Shown in pieces: positions 2,964 to 61,144 of a DNA stretch of 64,000 nucleotides; the stretch's first letter is position 1; each line of letters begins with the position of its first letter. The position numbers were made by a program, and so were the translations under genes. Under the pieces are notes generated by a model. It had not been told where the DNA came from. It did no database searches and was given only the letters and a program-made list of their open reading frames with translations. The DNA is from Candidatus Nomurabacteria bacterium RIFCSPLOWO2_01_FULL_41_18 (GTDB lineage: Bacteria; Patescibacteriota; Minisyncoccia; Phycocordibacterales; UBA9973), in the NCBI GenBank assembly GCA_001785865.1, contig MFUZ01000006.1, positions 176,880-240,879 of the forward strand, written 5' to 3'.

Positions 2964-3707
2964 TTACAGTATAGCACTATTTAGATTTTTAGGGAAGTTA
3001 GTTAAATTCTTATAACCATTTTTTGTTATCAACACCATATCCTCTATTCTTACCCCACCGAAACCTTTCAGGTATATTCCCGGCTCTATAGTCATCACAC
3101 ACCCCACAGGAATAATGTCTTCACTCTTTGGTTTAAAATTTGGCCACTCGTGAATGACAGTGCCGACTCCATGCCCAAGTCCATGTTTAAAATTATTTTT
3201 AAATTTCTTCGCCAAAAAACTTCTAGCAACTCTATCTACTACTTTTGCTTTCTTTTCCCCCTTACTCAACTTCGCTAAAGCACGATTCTGGGCTTCGAGA
3301 ACTACTTGATAAACTTTTTTCTGCTTAGCAGTAGGTTTGCCCCAAAAATAAGTGCGAGTCATGTCTGAACAATAATGATTTATTGTGCATCCAAAATCAA
3401 ACATGATTATATCCGCCCCGCCACGGCGGGTAAACTTTTTTAATTTAGTTTTTCCCGGATTGTGGTGAATATTCGCAGTATTTTTACCAAAAGAAACTAT
3501 TGGTGGAAAGGACAACACATTTACGCCATGGCGTAAATGTGTTTTTTTAATAAAATTTGCAATTTCAAGCTCTGTCACTCCATCCCGTAATTTTTCTATA
3601 GTCTTTTGCAAAACCTTCTCGCTTATCCTCTGCGCTTTTACAATATTTGCCAACTCTTTTTTACTTTTTACCGCCCGTACTTCGTGAATGAGTTTTGTTT
3701 TTTTCAT
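2964..3707 (-). CDS. map: Methionine aminopeptidase type I
   Basis: Metal-ligand motifs DFGCTINHYCSDMTRT, HGLGHGVG, TIEPGIY and RIEDMVLIT. It contains an in-frame GC-rich insertion coding FTRRGG. Confidence 0.9.
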   Translation of the reverse strand: MKKTKLIHEVRAVKSKKELANIVKAQRISEKVLQKTIEKLRDGVTELEIANFIKKTHLRHGVNVLSFPPIVSFGKNTANIHHNPGKTKLKKFTRRGGADIIMFDFGCTINHYCSDMTRTYFWGKPTAKQKKVYQVVLEAQNRALAKLSKGEKKAKVVDRVARSFLAKKFKNNFKHGLGHGVGTVIHEWPNFKPKSEDIIPVGCVMTIEPGIYLKGFGGVRIEDMVLITKNGYKNLTNFPKNLNSAIL

Positions 3708-3790
3708 GGTTCGATTTTGCTCACCATGACCCTGAGAATTTATTCGAATGGGTCATAATTAACTATCCGCATATTCGCGCGAATTAGAGA
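3704..3790 (-). promoter_or_regulatory. Conserved leader element with the start codon embedded in a hairpin (copy 1 of 3), plus an upstream ATTCGCGCGAAT palindrome
   Basis: The minus-sense sequence reads ATGACCCATTCGAAtaaattCTCAGGGTCATGGTGAGcaAAAtCGAACCATG, where the final ATG is the map start codon. The arms ATGACCC/GGGTCAT and CATGGT/ACCATG are self-complementary. Almost the same string lies upstream of the CDSs at 56892 and 57451. Confidence 0.5.
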
Positions 3791-3792
3791 TA

Positions 3793-4908
3793 TCAAAAGA
3801 ATTTAACTATGTCATTAAAGGTCACGAGAACCATAAGCAATATCAGGATGCCGAAGCCGATCATATTGGCTGTATTGGCAACTTTCGGATTGATTCGCGA
3901 ACCCTTTATTTTTTCGATTAACAAGAAGAATAGCCGCCCGCCGTCTAGTGCTGGAAATGGCACCAGGTTGATCACCGCTAGGCTTACAGAGATGAGTGCA
4001 GCAAAAGACAATAAATACCCCACTCCTACGTCAAATACGACTCCAGTGACCTTGGCGAGCCCTACAGGGCCTATCACCGATTCGCGTATGGCCTTTGATT
4101 CCGGACCGCCAAAAACAAGCTTTTTGAGCCCTACAATCGTATCTCGAGAGGTAAGCAAGGTGGTTTGCAGGCCATAATTGATTGACTCAAAAAAATTGAA
4201 TTTTCCAGAGATTAAGGTATAAGGCATGATGCCGATCAAAGCTCGCCCGACTTCATCATTAGCTTCTGGAATCAGATCTACTGATTTTTCTTCGCCACTC
4301 CGCAGATAAGATATACGAATCGTTTCTCCTGGCTTGTCGGTAAAAGCGATGAATTCATCCAAGGTCGGCGTTTCCATTTTTTCATTATTTGTCTCTATAG
4401 CAGTCAAGATGTCTCCCGCTTCCAGTCCCGCTTTTTCCGCCGGACTTTTTGACGCCACTCCGAGCACTACTATCTTTTCTGTCATCTGCTCAAGGGCGCC
4501 TTTAGGAATACTGTCAGTCGCAAGCGGAGAACCAATAAAAAGCGTGCTCGCAAACAAGAGCCACGCCAAAAGGAAATTCATAAAGACTCCAGCAAACAAC
4601 ACTATCGCCTGTTTCCATTTCGCTTTATTGTAAAATTTTCTGTCTTCATCTGGGCCATTAGTATTTCTTGCTCCGTCCTTGGCAGGGTCATCATTTGGAT
4701 TCTCACCAAATATTTTAACAAATCCGCCTATGGGCAGGAGGTTTAGACTATATTCAGTTTCTCCAAATTTCTTGCCGAATATTTTAGGTGGGAAACCAAA
4801 ACCAAATTCATCCACGCGGATGCCGAACTTCTTCGCAGTAAAAAAATGTCCGAACTCGTGGACTAGGACCAGCACTAGTAGAATAATTATGAATATAATA
4901 ATTGACAT
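3793..4908 (-). CDS. rseP: RIP zinc metalloprotease (site-2 protease) with PDZ domain
   Basis: HEFGHFF zinc motif in TM1, an internal PDZ-like segment, and C-terminal TM helices. Confidence 0.8.
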   Translation of the reverse strand: MSIIIFIIILLVLVLVHEFGHFFTAKKFGIRVDEFGFGFPPKIFGKKFGETEYSLNLLPIGGFVKIFGENPNDDPAKDGARNTNGPDEDRKFYNKAKWKQAIVLFAGVFMNFLLAWLLFASTLFIGSPLATDSIPKGALEQMTEKIVVLGVASKSPAEKAGLEAGDILTAIETNNEKMETPTLDEFIAFTDKPGETIRISYLRSGEEKSVDLIPEANDEVGRALIGIMPYTLISGKFNFFESINYGLQTTLLTSRDTIVGLKKLVFGGPESKAIRESVIGPVGLAKVTGVVFDVGVGYLLSFAALISVSLAVINLVPFPALDGGRLFFLLIEKIKGSRINPKVANTANMIGFGILILLMVLVTFNDIVKFF

Positions 4909-55606: not shown

Positions 55607-55777
55607 TTATTTCTTATCCTCCATTCCATGCCCCTTTGGATCTGCCATGCAACATTGGCCTACTGGTTTGCCAGATCCACAAAAACACTTTTCCATCATT
55701 CCACAGCACGCTCCGTACATTTTTCCAGATCCACATTTGCAATCCTCCATTAATTTTGCTTTTTGTGTTTCGTCCAT
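55607..55777 (-). CDS. Unannotated 56-aa protein with two tandem SEC-C metal-binding motifs
   Basis: Hand translation of the reverse strand gives MDETQKAKLMEDCKCGSGKMYGACCGMMEKCFCGSGKPVGQCCMADPKGHGMEDKK. The two motifs are CxCGSGKxxxxCC. It is below the 60-aa cutoff of the ORF track. Confidence 0.55.
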   Translation of the reverse strand: MDETQKAKLMEDCKCGSGKMYGACCGMMEKCFCGSGKPVGQCCMADPKGHGMEDKK

Positions 55778-55940: not shown

Positions 55941-56552
55941 ATGATCTTTAAGCAAGCACTCAACAGGCGGAAGTTTGTTCGGAATTTCGGCATCCTGTCG
56001 ACAACTCTTTTAGCACACAAGGGAGTCGCCAGCATCACCAATTTGGTTTCGTCTCGACTGAAATACGAAAAAGTGGTGGTCAACGGCACGGAGATTTTCC
56101 GAGTTGTTGCAACACCTTCACCAACAAATTCAGTTTGGGAACTGCAACAGTCTCTGGATGCAGGAACGTCATGGACGACTATCACAAACGCCACTTCTAT
56201 TGGTGGGGGCAAAATCCAATGGGATGCGTCGTCGATAAAAAAAGCCGAATTTTTTCGGGCAAAGATAGTCACAGCAACAATCACGGTCCCAAACAATACT
56301 CCTTATGACATCCCTTTGATTGAGGGGCAAAAGTTATTTGACGCCATGGAAAGCCTTAAATTGGTTATTCCATCGTTCACTTTCACCTCCCAGTTTCACA
56401 CTGGTCTCGGTCAGTTTGTGACCAGCATCAATGGGACGAGCCAAGGAGGAGGCTTGAAGTGGATCCTATTCGTCAACGGAGTCTCCTCGACCAAAGGAAG
56501 CTCACAATTAGCGCTAAACGCAGGCAACCATATGGAATGGCGCTTAATCTAA
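55941..56552 (+). CDS. Secreted protein with a Tat-like signal (RRKFVRNFG) and a C-terminal DUF4430-like domain
   Basis: C-terminus GQFVTSINGTSQGGGLKWILFVNG...NAGNHMEWRL. It has its own TTGACT promoter and a GGAG RBS. Confidence 0.5.
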   Translation: MIFKQALNRRKFVRNFGILSTTLLAHKGVASITNLVSSRLKYEKVVVNGTEIFRVVATPSPTNSVWELQQSLDAGTSWTTITNATSIGGGKIQWDASSIKKAEFFRAKIVTATITVPNNTPYDIPLIEGQKLFDAMESLKLVIPSFTFTSQFHTGLGQFVTSINGTSQGGGLKWILFVNGVSSTKGSSQLALNAGNHMEWRLI

Positions 56553-56569
56553 TCGGTTTTATCGGTAAC

Positions 56570-56610
56570 AAACACGGCTGGTAAGGGTTTCCCTTGCCAG
56601 CCTGTTCTTT
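56570..56610 (+). terminator. Rho-independent terminator GGCTGGTAAGGG-tttc-CCTTGCCAGCC plus T8
   Basis: 12-bp stem followed by TTCTTTTTTTT. Confidence 0.7.
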
Positions 56611-56816
56611 TTTTTACTTGCAACTATTTTTAAAGAGAATATAATATGTTTACTGTTATATGGTGGAAATGAGGTTAGATTCCTCTACTGTGCCGCAACG
56701 GTAATATCATAAATTTTATGATTAGTCCGGTCTTCATGTAACAGAGCTTCCGAGCAGAAGATTTTTTCATAGAAACTTTTATGATATCTTCCCGCCCGGG
56801 TAAGATATTTTTTTTA

Positions 56817-56894
56817 TGTGACCCTTCTAAATAATCAGGCCTTCGCTCTGAGACTCAGGCTCGAAGAGGTCATGGTGAGTAAAACCGAACCATG
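56817..56894 (+). promoter_or_regulatory. Start-codon-embedding leader element (copy 2 of 3), expanded form
   Basis: TGACCC...CTCAGGcTCgaagaGGTCATGGTGAGtaAAAcCGAACCATG. The final ATG is the CDS start. Confidence 0.5.
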
Positions 56895-57401
56895 AAAAAT
56901 CCAAAAAAACTATATATTGAAACAATTATTTTATTATTTTTTTGTGTTGTTATATTTTTTGTATATACAAAAGAAGAGAAAATCACCACCCCGTCTCAAG
57001 TAAAAACCGAAGCTCCCCTCCTTGATAAGGAGGGGGTTCCGGCTGGTAATTTAAAAAAGAACCACCTCGCCTCTGGCACTCCTCCTCAACAAGGAAGAGA
57101 GGAAACTATCCCAGAAAATACTCAATCTGCAACTGTCCTAGCTGGAGAAATGAACATAAATTTATCATTTCTCCCAAATACTATTTTCTATGATGCACTC
57201 ATACAAGCAAGAGATGCTAATAAAATAACATTTTCCGGTAAAAATTATCCTGGGCTTGGATTTTTTGTAACCGACATCGGCACCCTGCATGCAGGCAGTA
57301 GAAAATACTTGATTTATTACATTAATGGGAAGGAGGCGACCGTCGGCGTCTCGGCTTATACACTCAAAAAGGGCGACGTCATCGAGTGGAAATTGGAATA
57401 A
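56892..57401 (+). CDS. Secreted protein with a C-terminal DUF4430-like domain
   Basis: Signal-anchor MKNPKKLYIETIILLFFCVVIFFVY. C-terminus GFFVTDIGTLHAGSRKYLIYYINGKEATVGVSAYTLKKGDVIEWKL. Confidence 0.5.
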   Translation: MKNPKKLYIETIILLFFCVVIFFVYTKEEKITTPSQVKTEAPLLDKEGVPAGNLKKNHLASGTPPQQGREETIPENTQSATVLAGEMNINLSFLPNTIFYDALIQARDANKITFSGKNYPGLGFFVTDIGTLHAGSRKYLIYYINGKEATVGVSAYTLKKGDVIEWKLE

Positions 57402-57402
57402 C

Positions 57403-57453
57403 ATGACCCATTCGAGAAAACCTCAGGGTCATGGTGAGTATAATCGAACCATG
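57403..57453 (+). promoter_or_regulatory. Start-codon-embedding leader element (copy 3 of 3), with a perfect TATAAT 7 nt before the ATG
   Basis: ATGACCCATTCGAGaaaacCTCAGGGTCATGGTGAGtaTAAtCGAACCATG. It starts 2 nt after the upstream stop codon. Confidence 0.55.
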
Positions 57454-59526
57454 ACAAATATATTAAAATTGAGTTTGTTGTGTCTGATGGTGTTTAGTTT
57501 TACTGTAAATATTTATGCAGAAGATACTGAAATAGTTGATCCAGAACCAGTACTCCCTCCAGCCGAAATTCCTCTAGATCCAATTCCAGATCCCGTGCCA
57601 GAACCTGATCCAGCACCAACAGTTACATTTATAATTAGAAATGGTGATACATTGATCTACCAAGACACAACCCCTCTTCCTGACATAGAAAATGATAGAA
57701 ATGTATTATCAGTTTTGCAATCTATTGATGAATCAAGTGATGCATTTTCTATAACAAACATTCAAGAATTTTCTTTCGGTAAATATTTAAAATGCATATT
57801 ACCAACTGATGCGACAGAGCTATGCGACAATTGGCAATACGCCGTCGGAAATTTGACGCCTTTCTCGAGCATAGATACTACAATGCTCGTAGGCGGCGAA
57901 ACAGTAGGCATATATTTCGGCACATCGCACCAGCTCGTCTTGAGCAACGAACGCATTACTGAAGGCGGATCATTGACTGCCACTGCTCAAAAATATAATT
58001 ATGAAACCAACGCATGGGATATATTGGAAGGTGTCTCCGTGGGCGTGACCCTGCCAAATCCCGATGACGCCTGGAATCCGATAGTGGTCTCGACCCACCC
58101 TGTCGATGATGTGGGAATAGCAACTATCACCATCGCCGAAGAAAACACATTCACACTCGGCATCGTGGAAGATTTTTACTTTCCTTCATACACCGTAGTC
58201 GTCGAAAAATCCGAAGAAGACGGCGAAAATGGAAGCGAGAATGAGGGAACGAACGGAAGCAACCCTACCCCACACTCTTTCAGCACCGCAGACGCTTTGT
58301 CGTATCTGAAAAGCATGCAAAGCGAAGACGGATCATTCGGAGACTCCGATCTGTACACAGACTGGGCAGGAATTGCTTTTGGATCTATGAATGTAGGCGG
58401 AAGTTCAAAAACTAAAATTCTTTCTTATTTTGAATCTAATAACGAAATTAGTTCCCTTTTGACCGACAATGAAAGGCGTGCGATGACACTTCTCGCGCTT
58501 GATAAAAATCCATATTCTTTTGGTGATGATGAAGTAAATTACATAAAAGCTATTGTGGATGAGTTTGATGGTGAACAGTTTGGTGATGCAGACTTAGTTA
58601 ATGATGATATTTTTGCTTTGATTCCACTTCAAAATGCTGGTTACAATGAAAACGACGATATGATTATAGAAGACATCACTTTTATAATTTCAAAACAAAA
58701 AAGTAACGGCTCATGGGAAGAAAGCGTAGACGTCACAGCGGCAGCTATCCAAGCACTTGAAGCTTTTGATGGAGTAGATGGGGTTTCAAATGCACTCTCG
58801 CAAGCAAGTGCTTATCTCGAAAATGAACAAAACAGTGACGGTGGTTGGGGTAATGTTTCTTCTACAAGTTGGGCAATGCAAGCAGAAAGTGCGCTAAATA
58901 CGTCATGGTCAAAAAATGGAAAAGATGGACTTGATTATCTAGCGACAGGGCAAGAAGAAGACGGCGCAGTTTCCCCTACCGAAGAGACACTTGAAAATCG
59001 CATTTGGGCAACGAGTTATGCAGTTGCCGGAGCTTCGGGAAAGTCATGGGGTGAAATTATGAATTCAGTTTCAAAACCATCAAATCAAGAAGAGAATTCT
59101 GGGAATAATAATGAAAATGATTCAGATGATGAAAATGATTCTAGAGATGACACAGAAGATGAAATAGAGGATGTTGCTCCAGAAGAAACCCAAATTAAAA
59201 CAGTTGTCTGCCCTGTCGGAGATTTTTTTAACGCGACGACTGGAGAGTGGTGCACCGAATTTGTGGTGATAAATAATCCACCAATTATTAAACAAGAAAC
59301 AAAAATAGTAAAAAAAATAGAGATAGTGGAAACTCTAGCGGAAGAAAAAACATTAGGAGAACAAACTTTAACAACAACAGAGACCCTGACAGCAACAGCT
59401 ATCGGTACATTACCTACCGAGCAAAGTGTGCCACCGGAAAAAACTTCCAGTACGACCCCGATTGTTCTCGGAACTCTCGGAGGAATCGTTCTTCTTTATA
59501 TTGCCGCTAAGTTTTTGATCAAATAA
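57451..59526 (+). CDS. Large surface protein with an N-terminal DUF4430-like region, prenyltransferase/squalene-oxidase-type alpha-alpha toroid repeats, an acidic linker, and a Thr-rich C-terminal anchor (TM plus basic tail)
   Basis: The likely true start is MTNILKLSLLCLMVFSFTVNIYA (a signal peptide). The track ORF starts 42 codons earlier and runs through the leader element. Repeats: SEDGSFGDSD..., QKSNGSWEES..., EQNSDGGWGN... and GQEEDGAVSP.... C-terminus ...TLPTEQSVPPEKTSSTTPIVLGTLGGIVLLYIAAKFLIK. Confidence 0.6.
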   Translation: MTNILKLSLLCLMVFSFTVNIYAEDTEIVDPEPVLPPAEIPLDPIPDPVPEPDPAPTVTFIIRNGDTLIYQDTTPLPDIENDRNVLSVLQSIDESSDAFSITNIQEFSFGKYLKCILPTDATELCDNWQYAVGNLTPFSSIDTTMLVGGETVGIYFGTSHQLVLSNERITEGGSLTATAQKYNYETNAWDILEGVSVGVTLPNPDDAWNPIVVSTHPVDDVGIATITIAEENTFTLGIVEDFYFPSYTVVVEKSEEDGENGSENEGTNGSNPTPHSFSTADALSYLKSMQSEDGSFGDSDLYTDWAGIAFGSMNVGGSSKTKILSYFESNNEISSLLTDNERRAMTLLALDKNPYSFGDDEVNYIKAIVDEFDGEQFGDADLVNDDIFALIPLQNAGYNENDDMIIEDITFIISKQKSNGSWEESVDVTAAAIQALEAFDGVDGVSNALSQASAYLENEQNSDGGWGNVSSTSWAMQAESALNTSWSKNGKDGLDYLATGQEEDGAVSPTEETLENRIWATSYAVAGASGKSWGEIMNSVSKPSNQEENSGNNNENDSDDENDSRDDTEDEIEDVAPEETQIKTVVCPVGDFFNATTGEWCTEFVVINNPPIIKQETKIVKKIEIVETLAEEKTLGEQTLTTTETLTATAIGTLPTEQSVPPEKTSSTTPIVLGTLGGIVLLYIAAKFLIK

Positions 59527-59530
59527 AATG

Positions 59531-59615
59531 CGGAGATGGTGAGATTTGAACTCACGATACCTTGCGGTATGCCGGTTTTCGAAACCGGTGCTTTAAACCT
59601 CTCAGCCACATCTCC
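59531..59615 (-). tRNA. tRNA-Ser (anticodon CGA)
   Basis: rc = GGAGATGTGGCTGAGAGGTTTAAAGCACCGGTTTCGAAAACCGGCATACCGCAAGGTATCGTGAGTTCAAATCTCACCATCTCCG. It has a long variable arm, which is typical of Ser tRNAs. Confidence 0.85.
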
Positions 59616-59650
59616 ATGTCTTTTAATCTAGCATTTTTTAAAATTTTGGC

Positions 59651-59680
59651 TAGAAATTAAACAAGGCTTGGAGTTGTACT
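59651..59680. terminator. Perfect 13-bp hairpin CAAGGCTTGGAGT-tgt-ACTCCAAGCCTTG
   Basis: It lies between tRNA-Ser and a GC-rich non-coding stretch. Confidence 0.5.
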
Positions 59681-60097
59681 CCAAGCCTTGCGATGATAAA
59701 ACCCTGATACCCTATTTACCATACTTACCGTCCTACGAGTGAAAGCACCTGACTCTGGAACCGAAGTCCCGTGCCAGTGATCCCTTCATCGGAAACCTTC
59801 GTATTAGTAACGAATGGCATCCAATCCCCTTGCCTTGAACTGTAAACTGCGTTCCACGCCTTCTGTGCAAGTGACGTGAAATATTGTGGGTGTGAGATTG
59901 TTTTCTCGTGCATTTTTGGTTTTAGTTGGGTTTTTGGTTGTTGGGTTGTGCTATGAATTCTCCTCCCGAAGAATCCACAGCGGGTGAACATTAAAACTAC
60001 AAAAATATCCTAGCACGCTTGCTAATTTTTGTCAAGTGTTGTGAAATAATAAAATTAAATTTGTTTTTTTAAAAAAAATGTTATAGTATCCAACATT

Positions 60098-60169
60098 GGC
60101 CCTATCGTCTAACGGTTAGGACAACGGGTTTTCAATCCGTTAATCGCAGTTCGATTCTGCGTAGGGTCA
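60098..60169 (+). tRNA. tRNA-Glu (anticodon UUC)
   Basis: GGCCCTATCGTCTAACGGTTAGGACAACGGGTTTTCAATCCGTTAATCGCAGTTCGATTCTGCGTAGGGTCA. It shares its 5' half with the Glu-CUC tRNA at 42854-42925. Confidence 0.8.
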
Positions 60170-60341
60170 CAGCTACATAAAACAAACCCACTGCTGGGCT
60201 TTTTTATGTGCTGTGACGACCGCAGTGATGTTTTGTCAGTAGACAAAACCACGAGGAGCGGACTGCGAAAATTCTGAGTGACGAAGAAGAATTATTTGTG
60301 GTCACATTTTTGTAAAAAATTGCAAAAAAAAGTGGCCTGCG

Positions 60342-60366
60342 TTTTCCACGCAGGCCAGTGCACCCA
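60342..60366 (-). terminator. Hairpin GGCCTGCGT-tttcc-ACGCAGGCC with a U-run on the minus strand
   Basis: Minus sense: ...GGCCTGCGTGGAAAACGCAGGCCACTTTTTTTTGC. Confidence 0.5.
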
Positions 60367-60759
60367 ATTTGTAGTTATACGAACCTACTGCTTACGCAAA
60401 CCTCATCACCCGATCCTGATCACCACTCCTCCTCCAGTCGGCGACAATGCCACGACTGGTTGGACGAGAAATCAATCTCGGATCATGCCACGTCCTGAAT
60501 CTGATGGTGGGACGATCCAAGCGAACAGGATTTGCTGAGGTTTCTTTGAGACCCTGCCTTACTGCAGGCGCCGTTGCGTTTTGCGTTTGCATTTTTTTTG
60601 TTTTTCGTTTTTGGTTTTACGTTGCTGCTCTTGGTTGAGGAACCAATATGTCGGTGGAGAACCGACACCGAAGAACAGCTTCAAAAAGACTGTACCACAT
60701 CTTCTTTAATAAAGCAATTTTTCCACAATCCCTTTAAAAATAAGCCTAAAAATCAGTGA

Positions 60760-60788
60760 TTGACTTTTGAGTATGAATATGCTATACT
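60760..60788 (+). promoter_or_regulatory. Sigma70 consensus promoter TTGACT-N17-TATACT (plus strand), a twin of the promoter at 6174-6202
   Basis: ttgact-tttgagtatgaatatgc-tatact. Confidence 0.6.
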
Positions 60789-60862
60789 GTAGAGAGTAGG
60801 TAGTAAATAGTTCAAACAACGGTCTCCTTAAAATGGGGACTGCAACAATTCAACCGAAAGAG

Positions 60863-61057
60863 ATTATGAAGTCAAAAAATTCACTCAATGCGAAGTGGTC
60901 TCGGCAAAGATACGAAGACAACAACGAGATCATGAGACTTGGGATATGGGGCATGGCATCGGCTACAGCAGTTTGGTTCACAATCTGCGCCACTTGTAGC
61001 AACGAGTCGGCAACGCATCTGGTGGACTGCTTCCGACACATCGTCGCCAACTGGTAA
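60863..61057 (+). CDS. GC-rich small ORF (about 63 aa) between a consensus promoter and a hairpin terminator. It could alternatively be an ncRNA.
   Basis: RBS gaaagag is 5 nt upstream. Terminator at 61080-61120 (GAGCGCCAAGG...CCTTCGGCGCT plus a T-run). Confidence 0.3.
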   Translation: MMKSKNSLNAKWSRQRYEDNNEIMRLGIWGMASATAVWFTICATCSNESATHLVDCFRHIVANW

Positions 61058-61144
61058 TCTCATGAAAACATCAAATCGTCGAGCGCCAAGGTTCTATTCC
61101 TTCGGCGCTTTACTGTTTTTATATATACTTTATAATCATACTTA

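Follow-up and report, generated by a model that had tools for sequence, protein, structure and literature searches.

We examined three genes (A, B, and C below) at positions 55941 to 59526 of a 64,000-nucleotide stretch of contig MFUZ01000006.1 from Candidatus Nomurabacteria bacterium RIFCSPLOWO2_01_FULL_41_18, a very small bacterium of groundwater; the whole stretch is referred to as the window. Genes B and C probably encode a membrane-tethered, outward-facing protein pair that would capture corrinoids, feed an importer and be repressed by adenosylcobalamin (AdoCbl). The initial annotation, made from the letters of the window alone, had suggested capture of a vitamin or corrinoid as one possible role of the cluster. 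This idea is strengthened by the riboswitch upstream of B and C and by the genes that adjoin the pair in related loci: the window and 64 of 80 related loci carry a cobalamin riboswitch, and in about half of the loci the pair is linked to genes for NrdJ (a class II ribonucleotide reductase), a corrinoid adenosyltransferase, and a CbrT-like S-component. Corrinoid binding itself is a prediction.

The AdoCbl riboswitch aptamer (56638-56766, + strand) lies in the 339-base gap between genes A and B, just 5′ of B, and was absent from the initial annotation. It matched the Rfam model RF01482 at 49.2 bits (E = 1.6e-7). A gathering-mode Rfam scan of the window listed tRNAs alone, and the riboswitch emerged in a more permissive local scan. 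A promoter-like sequence, TTGCAA-16-TATAAT (56618-56645, + strand, 10 of 12 matches), is found just before helix P1 of the riboswitch, and many orthologous riboswitches have an A/T-rich, TATAAT-like stretch at the corresponding position of their 5′ flank. The expression platform after the aptamer (56784-56815, + strand) was predicted to fold into the hairpin ATATCTTCCCG..CGGGTAAGATAT (56784-56808, -11.3 kcal/mol), which is followed by a run of seven T. A similar hairpin with a T-run was found after the aptamer in 44 of 63 orthologous loci. The 3′ end of the aptamer offers GAAGAU as an alternative partner for the 5′ arm of the hairpin (AUCUUC); the counterparts in most orthologues are GCAGGA (aptamer) and TCCTGC...GCAGGA (hairpin). 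The alternative pairing would form an anti-terminator and thus suggests a terminator/anti-terminator switch. It was concluded that B and C are one transcription unit with its own promoter and under B12 control. This control is presumably repression by AdoCbl.

The same arrangement was found in other Patescibacteria. One genome per species was scanned and at least 187 genomes encode a relative of C; the best 80 of the 187 loci (L008-L087) were compared. Five loci were reached separately via individual homologues. Four of these five (L005, L006, L007, and L003) carry at the same place a cobalamin riboswitch that scores above the Rfam gathering score (56.6, 53.3, and 50.1 bits for RF01482, and 36.6 bits for RF00174 against a cut-off of 31.5), and the fifth has a match below the gathering score (32.9 bits, E = 2.6e-4). 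RF01482 belongs to clan CL00101. A covariance model of our own, built from six of the riboswitches, matched 64 of the 80 loci with one match each, on the coding strand and just 5′ of B, and it gave no match elsewhere in 864 kb of sequence. One aptamer helix shows compensatory changes among 63 aligned sequences: the base pair is GC in 42, CG in 19, and AU in two, and the next pair is AU in 42 and UA in 18. Roughly one sequence in three carries such changes, which fall on these two pairs. Ten loci have upstream sequence and no riboswitch match. Rescanning them with Rfam and with our own model (E ≤ 10) gave nothing convincing, the best match being one of 20 bits (E = 0.09) in locus L078. In the other nine, the B and C genes directly follow an adenosyltransferase or NrdJ gene, either a few bases away or overlapping it.

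Clustering and mapping of the open reading frames (ORFs) of the 80 loci showed which genes accompany the pair. The commonest order on the same strand is S, NrdJ, adenosyltransferase, riboswitch, B, C, where S is an S-component-like membrane protein; a variant order is NrdJ, S, riboswitch, B, C. Upstream of the pair, a gene for NrdJ was found in 43 of the 80 loci, for the S-component-like protein in 38, and for an adenosyltransferase in 34 (PduO-type in 29 and CobA-type in five). Pfam domains found in NrdJ are ATP-cone, RNR_Alpha, and the B12-dependent ribonucleotide reductase insertion domain; the adenosyltransferases matched CobA_CobO_BtuR (E = 1e-51) and Cob_adeno_trans (E = 3e-41). The S protein is about 181 residues long. 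Pfam ECF-ribofla_trS matches 35 of its 39 family members and DUF6580 matches nine, and the family profile matches a 182-aa chain named "Membrane protein" in PDB entry 6FNP (E = 9.8e-6). This chain is probably CbrT, as judged from its length and name. Genes for the energizing module of an energy-coupling factor (ECF) transporter were not seen next to the pair in the loci read. Locus L078, which has neither the riboswitch nor the three upstream genes, carries a DUF6580 membrane-protein gene immediately 3′ of C (3486-4028 of that locus, E = 1.4e-40), whose product shows 23% identity to the first member of the S family. An ArsR-family regulator gene is found 3′ of C, on the same strand, in 17 loci.

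A comparable gene set is known from Lactobacillus delbrueckii, which has an nrdJ-cbrS-cbrT-pduO cluster, and 6FNP is the structure of the ECF-CbrT vitamin B12 transporter (PMC5997447). That report mentions no extracellular binding protein, and the trio of reductase, S-component-like, and adenosyltransferase genes is not found in the window. As in the L. delbrueckii cluster, the three kinds of genes stand together, here beside the pair in about half of the loci. The names CbrT and CbrS reportedly go back to Rodionov et al. in 2009.

Gene B (56892-57401, + strand) encodes a protein of 169 amino acids (aa). An N-terminal membrane anchor (residues ~9-25), which looks uncleaved, appears to be followed by some 60 linker residues and then by a DUF4430 beta domain at the C-terminus (residues 99-169). 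The Pfam model PF14478 (DUF4430) matches B at 50.6 bits (E = 2.7e-13) against a cut-off of 23.8; it also matches A, as described below, so that the DUF4430-like C-terminal domain tentatively assigned to both proteins in the initial annotation exceeds the Pfam cut-off in each. A search with B against PDB sequences gave nothing informative. We found 131 homologues of B and every source name available is a Patescibacteria-type lineage. A B-type gene is located immediately 5′ of C in 73 of the 80 loci, and most of the remaining loci have no upstream sequence. In all five loci reached via individual homologues, a small DUF4430 gene directly precedes C despite differing flanks.

Gene C (57451-59526 including the stop codon, + strand, locus tag A2738_00930) encodes 691 aa starting with MTNILK, and the identical NCBI protein is also 691 aa long. 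A longer ORF that starts at 57325 would overlap B. C has more than 690 homologues and every name given belongs to Patescibacteria (Nomurabacteria, Paceibacterota, Falkowbacteria, Parcubacteria, Minisyncoccia). An AlphaFold model of C, built with 60 homologues, has a mean predicted local distance difference test (pLDDT) score of 78 and a predicted template modeling (pTM) score of 0.50. The features of C are all on the + strand. Residues 1-23 (57451-57519) form a predicted signal peptide that ends with IYA before ED (helix 2-16 in the model), and a Pro-rich spacer, modeled with low confidence, continues to residue 55. This is followed by a beta domain (57616-57924; residues 57-156 in the model), an immunoglobulin (Ig)-like beta-sandwich spacer (residues 159-253, 57925-58209; all-beta, pLDDT ~90) and an alpha6/alpha6 toroid (residues 278-540, 58282-59070), whose 12 helices span residues 279-536 in the model and which was identified with Pfam and Foldseek. 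The remainder is a stalk and a C-terminal helix, described further below. The anatomy that the initial annotation gave for the three genes was thus borne out by the ORFs, Pfam, and the model. Its N-terminal signals also stood when assigned by eye: a twin-arginine (Tat)-like motif with a weakly hydrophobic stretch in A, a membrane helix in B, and a classic signal peptide in C.

The N-terminal domain of C is, on its predicted fold, a transcobalamin-type beta domain, i.e., a beta-grasp with a beta-hairpin insert after the helix. It was taken as such because of Pfam matches in half of the orthologues together with the fold. DUF4430 was not detected by Pfam in the copy of C in the window, but PF14478 matches 15 of 30 orthologous N-terminal domains at E ≤ 0.1 (best E = 4.4e-6). 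The domain placed there by the initial annotation is therefore upheld through orthologues and fold, although Pfam is silent on the window copy. Modeled alone, the domain reached a pLDDT of 90.7 and a pTM of 0.83; two strands, a helix, and four more strands follow one another in the model. In the PDB, its first 19 matches (template modeling (TM) score 0.60-0.69) are solely beta domains of B12 carriers, such as intrinsic factor (2pmv), haptocorrin (4kki), and transcobalamin (5no0, 5np4, 8ixu, etc.), and the Ruminococcus gnavus DUF4430 structure 3u7z. Below these 19 are generic ubiquitin-like folds at TM 0.3-0.5. Comparison at the sequence level was less informative: a hidden Markov model of the B domain gave nothing significant against 120 C homologues (hhalign probability 2.5%), and a profile of the C domain gave nothing useful against PDB sequences.

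Cys115 and Cys125 of the C beta domain are invariant, as are W128 and Q129 of a WQY motif, and Y130 is nearly so. Downstream of C, on either strand, a thioredoxin-like gene is found in 24 loci and a DsbB-like gene in 20. These neighbors are suggestive because the invariant Cys pair would need extracellular oxidation.

The toroid matches SQHop_cyclase_C (PF13243) at 40.8 bits against a cut-off of 26.1 (E = 1.8e-10), and all 60 family members surveyed with Pfam score above the cut-off. The squalene-cyclase/prenyltransferase-type repeats proposed earlier are thus present, and the model shows a 12-helix toroid. The toroid fold alone assigns no function, because whole-C Foldseek matches to cyclases, alpha2-macroglobulin and complement thioester domains, and the alpha domains of transcobalamin or haptocorrin all fall on it and are about equally good; a lyase also matches there. 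The alpha domains of transcobalamin and haptocorrin match at Foldseek E-values of 5e-5 to 2e-4, among other toroids. PF01122 (Cobalamin_bind) matches 13 of the 60 family members at E ≤ 0.01 (best E = 8.2e-6).

Public names of C relatives ("terpene cyclase/mutase family protein", [quoted passage not shown]) raise the question of whether C works as a terpene cyclase or prenyltransferase. The best PDB sequence matches of the toroid are squalene-hopene cyclases (profile E = 5e-12), and so is the best Foldseek match; PF13243 is found in all 60 members surveyed. However, C has a single toroid of ~260 residues and no two-domain body, and NCBIfam cyclase models match below threshold (e.g., TIGR01787 at 38.8 bits against 322.7). 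The segment that HMMER aligned with the cyclase DxDD motif reads GDADL in C, and the family consensus is GDxxL. The toroid has no invariant Cys or His and therefore no prenyltransferase-type zinc site. The signal peptide, the fusion to a B12-carrier beta domain and the control by a B12 riboswitch also speak against an enzyme of this kind, which we consider very improbable. Even less credible is a thioester defense protein resembling alpha2-macroglobulin or complement. PF07678 (TED_complement) matches 31 of the 60 members, and many Foldseek matches are to alpha2-macroglobulin and complement, but these matches cover the generic toroid only, at TM 0.15-0.27, and C has no macroglobulin domains. 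Most members have exactly two Cys, both in the beta domain, so that a CGEQ thioester motif in the toroid is impossible in them. The single toroid, the GDADL/GDxxL segment, the lack of invariant Cys/His, and the confinement of Cys to the beta domain together make the cyclase, prenyltransferase, and thioester readings unlikely.

After the toroid, C continues with an acidic, Thr-rich stalk (59071-59454; pLDDT <50, ~130 disordered residues) and ends in a membrane helix with a basic tail, PIVLGTLGGIVLLYIAA-KFLIK (59455-59523; helix residues 672-690 in the model). Each feature that the initial annotation listed for this region is present: an acidic linker, a pair of Cys (CPVGDFFNATTGEWC), a segment rich in Thr, a hydrophobic helix at the end, and the tail KFLIK. 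The C-termini of 120 homologues (P0001-P0120) were surveyed. A hydrophobic C-terminus was found in 97 of them. The motif LTATA (residues 646-650 of C, 59386-59400) is conserved in the family: the strict pattern L-[TSAV]-A-[STNA]-[AVT] occurs in 76 of the 120 (median distance to the C-terminus, 38 residues), and many others have near variants such as FTATA or LIATA. After the motif, there are 10-20 variable residues, often with I-P-x-P, and then the membrane helix and a short basic tail. The C tail is best read as an ordinary membrane anchor behind a conserved motif, and the motif might be a processing or sorting signal. The same motif-plus-helix tail was sought in other ORFs of ~140 kb of the window and loci and none was found, which gives no ground for calling the motif a general sorting signal.

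The Cys pair of the stalk is found in eight of the 120 homologues, six of which have a CPxG-type loop. This loop, CPxGDxFxxxTGxxC (59200-59250, residues ~585-600), is limited to the closest relatives (six of 120) and weakly matches the NCBIfam model LIC10965_fam (E = 0.03); the two further homologues have a different Cys pair in the stalk.

The initial annotation read the end of C as a sortase- or exosortase-like anchor, and this is not supported. As in sortase substrates, a hydrophobic segment is followed by a basic tail. However, TLPTEQS is peculiar to the C of the window and unconserved among the 120 homologues, NCBIfam sorting-signal models (including TIGR01167) gave no match to the last 60 residues at E ≤ 10 or to the whole of C at E ≤ 1, and the sortase motif TLxTC was found in no ORF of the window. 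An LPXTG-type signal is not supported by the family motif either: the conserved motif differs and stands ~15-20 residues before the helix rather than adjacent to it, with no match to a model. These results bear on a further explanation, in which C chiefly serves an episymbiont for adhesion or attachment to its host, is covalently anchored to the wall by a sortase and has a secondary link to B12. C does have features of a large surface protein: an Ig-like domain, a long stalk, and a C-terminus made of motif, helix, and basic tail. Some relatives carry additional, different Ig-like modules (PF16403), and one distant relative has LPQTG in its stalk with a weak LPXTG_anchor match (E = 0.061). Against this explanation stand the unconserved TLPTEQS, the non-LPXTG nature of the conserved motif, the silence of the sorting-signal models, and the lack of a sortase in the window; the neighborhood contains no pointers to adhesion, whereas the B12 linkage is pervasive. 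The adhesin role with a sortase anchor is quite improbable; the attachment role that the initial annotation offered as an alternative gained no support.

The findings above can be joined in a mechanism for the B-C pair. At low AdoCbl, B and C would be transcribed. C would be exported via its signal peptide, and its C-terminal helix and long disordered stalk would hold it off the membrane; the N-terminal helix of B would tether that protein via a shorter linker. C may then capture a corrinoid between its beta domain and toroid in the fashion of transcobalamin, and B possibly serves as a second binding or hand-over module. The corrinoid would be passed to an inner-membrane importer, most likely a CbrT-like ECF S-component. 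A PduO- or CobA-type adenosyltransferase would convert it to AdoCbl for NrdJ, and AdoCbl would terminate B-C transcription via the riboswitch, closing the loop. The analysis established the identities of the domains, the riboswitch with its terminator, and the conserved linkage of the genes, and from these the binding, the surface exposure and topology, the part of B, the hand-over, and the direction of regulation were inferred.

Several observations weigh against this mechanism. The riboswitch of the window falls 0.8 bits under the Rfam gathering score of 50. Profiles of NrdJ, S, and the PduO- and CobA-type adenosyltransferases match nothing in the window. In C, PF01122 scores 14.1 bits (E = 0.023) against a cut-off of 25, and the toroid sequence resembles squalene-cyclase repeats (matched in all 60 members) more closely than PF01122 (matched in 13). 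A beta domain is present within C itself, alongside the beta-only B. With a pTM of 0.50, the whole-C model does not fix how the beta domain and toroid are placed relative to each other, and so does not establish that the two close over one pocket. Finally, the sole bacterial analogue studied by experiment, Lsa1839/Lsa1840 of L. sakei, was linked to heme and not to B12 (bioRxiv 10.1101/864751).

The last point leads to another explanation, namely that the pair captures a different tetrapyrrole (heme or a corrinoid precursor) instead of cobalamin, as has been proposed for the L. sakei proteins. Lsa1839 and Lsa1840 are secreted beta-like and alpha-like proteins with a proposed hand-over of tetrapyrrole to an S-component; deletion of the ECF operon that encodes them reduced heme uptake, and heme could be docked between the two proteins (bioRxiv 10.1101/864751). 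ECF-CbrT also transports cobinamide (PMC5997447), and the ligand specificity of the pair is unreadable from sequence. The L. sakei domains are on separate proteins inside an ECF operon, whereas here they are fused in C, accompanied by a second beta protein, and found in a cobalamin context. Heme is disfavored by the cobalamin-class riboswitch of the window and the 64 loci, and the linked genes encode a B12-dependent reductase and corrinoid adenosyltransferases, with no heme enzymes among them. We regard capture of another tetrapyrrole as distinctly unlikely. A bolder version of corrinoid capture is a relay resembling transcobalamin and its receptor: C would close its beta domain and toroid over the corrinoid and pass it to B and then to the CbrT-like S-component, perhaps without an ECF energizing module, and L-[TSAV]-A-[STNA]-[AVT] would be a new processing or sorting signal of Patescibacteria. 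This version as a whole is unlikely, with only a small chance of being right.

The proposed corrinoid capture by B and C has counterparts in several known systems. The animal carriers transcobalamin, intrinsic factor, and haptocorrin (PF01122 plus PF14478; 2bb6, 2pmv, 4kki) likewise combine an alpha6/alpha6 toroid with a beta-grasp domain that has a hairpin insert, and tight extracellular capture of a scarce corrinoid is presumably shared. The animal carriers are soluble single chains with the toroid first and the beta domain last, whereas C has the order beta, Ig-like, toroid and appears to be membrane-anchored. The B-C pair also differs in its extra beta-only partner, its riboswitch control, and the sub-threshold score of PF01122.

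In 2007, Burroughs, Balaji, Iyer, and Aravind delineated a transcobalamin-like clade among the beta-grasp (SLBB) domains (PMC1796856). They described secreted or anchored bacterial fusions of the beta domain with alpha/alpha toroids in either order, fusions with Ig folds, and operons with a second paralogous secreted beta-domain protein, some with C-terminal Gram-positive anchors; the hosts usually lack key enzymes of B12 biosynthesis, and B12 scavenging was predicted (PMC1796856). Because B12-scavenging proteins with a beta domain and a toroid were predicted in that work, the cluster falls within an already described variety. The examples given there are from Firmicutes and archaea and stand next to CbiO/CbiQ, whereas the genes described here are from Patescibacteria and are found with a CbrT-like S protein, NrdJ, and adenosyltransferase. 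The anchor of C is also a simple C-terminal helix, accompanied by a motif of the LTA[ST]A type, and a cobalamin riboswitch precedes the unit; riboswitches are not mentioned in PMC1796856. What is added here is the Patescibacteria lineage, the riboswitch directly upstream, and the linkage to NrdJ, adenosyltransferase, and a CbrT-like protein. A literature search for work linking the candidate phyla radiation with cobalamin riboswitches or DUF4430 gave nothing relevant, and no paper on this system in this group was found.

In Bacteroides, BtuG and BtuH are surface lipoproteins of the outer membrane with high affinity for B12 that are riboswitch-controlled and feed a TonB-dependent transporter. 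Their likeness to B and C would be one of function, as the folds are unrelated and the anchor is a lipid.

Gene A (55941-56552, + strand, locus tag A2738_00940) encodes 203 aa. Its product begins with a twin-arginine-like NRRKFVRNFG and a weakly hydrophobic stretch, continues with a beta-rich middle part and ends in a C-terminal DUF4430 domain (residues 129-202), which PF14478 matches at 35.9 bits (E = 1e-8; cut-off 23.8). In a large database search with A, the sole match was A itself. An orthologue was found in one of the 80 loci, L076 (43% identity, E = 4e-34), at the same place upstream of the riboswitch and with SRRGFF close to its N-terminus. A TatA-like motif was found in no ORF of the window. 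Gene A is followed by a terminator-like hairpin (56576-56602, + strand; 12 pairs, eight of them G-C, then a T-run). Because A has this terminator and sits upstream of the riboswitch, it is outside the B-C unit. It was concluded that A is a rare accessory beta-domain paralogue with separate transcription, outside riboswitch control. The cluster of the initial annotation therefore stands in so far as A, B, and C are present and co-oriented, but it is not a single unit.

The initial annotation also reported a hairpin-start leader at two of the three genes, and a motif search located it at B and C. A long variant (56818-56895, + strand) contains the ATG of B and a short form (57403-57454, + strand) contains the ATG of C. 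A third copy (3704-3755, - strand, core match 3704-3729) is found at an unrelated gene (3707), so that three matches were observed in the window against 0.00 expected. The same leader precedes the C orthologue in L001 (9955-10003). The leader is a nearly invariant element of 52-80 nucleotides whose 3′ end supplies the start codon. It consists of ATGACCC, TTCGA, ACTCA, the loop GGGTCATGG, TGAGT, TCGAA, and CCATGA, and is longer than the hairpin first described. The nine-base loop is complementary to the 5′ flank and also to the 3′ flank with the start codon. A metagenome scan gave at least 120 stretches with the leader (L088-L207). Among the matches listed, 90 of 114 distinct copies are followed by an in-frame ORF of at least 60 codons (~6% by chance), and the genes behind the leader encode L31, L2, L36, MurF, FolD, pilins, and others; some copies listed are on G+C-rich contigs with no ORF behind them. 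The leader has no match in Rfam, and a literature search by sequence found no paper. Because it is present before the unrelated gene at 3707 and before many kinds of genes in metagenomes, it is not specific to the cluster; it is a general element and no mark of these three genes.

The three genes are the + strand ORFs within 55941-59526 in the ORF list of the window, which has a G+C content of ~40%. Upstream of the cluster are ybeY-, ftsA-, ftsZ-, and thioredoxin-reductase-like genes, as judged from the translations by eye and from Pfam labels at the syntenic locus L001. Between the thioredoxin-reductase-like gene and A is a 56-aa ORF (55607-55777, - strand) with two CxCGSGK...CC motifs, which by eye resemble SEC-C metal-binding motifs. 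A tRNA-Ser gene (59530-59615, - strand) lies directly downstream of C; it is tRNA-Ser(CGA), and a tRNA-Glu(UUC) gene is located at 60098-60170. No convincing ORF was seen in the ~1.5 kb 3′ of C (59620-61140), and the ~900 bases at 60200-61140 matched nothing in Rfam at E ≤ 0.1.

The genomes of Patescibacteria, also known as the candidate phyla radiation, are tiny, and these bacteria presumably rely on other cells for most of their building blocks. The results suggest that a dedicated surface capture pair under B12 regulation has been kept in a large clade of them, with C in at least 187 species-level genomes. The adjacency of NrdJ and adenosyltransferase genes in about half of the loci would tie the supply of DNA precursors to scavenged B12. 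The public annotation of C as a terpene cyclase would be corrected accordingly, and C and its homologues would offer bacterial relatives of the human B12 carriers, with reversed domain order, for structural comparison. The pair may also give a testable handle on what Patescibacteria take from their surroundings or hosts.

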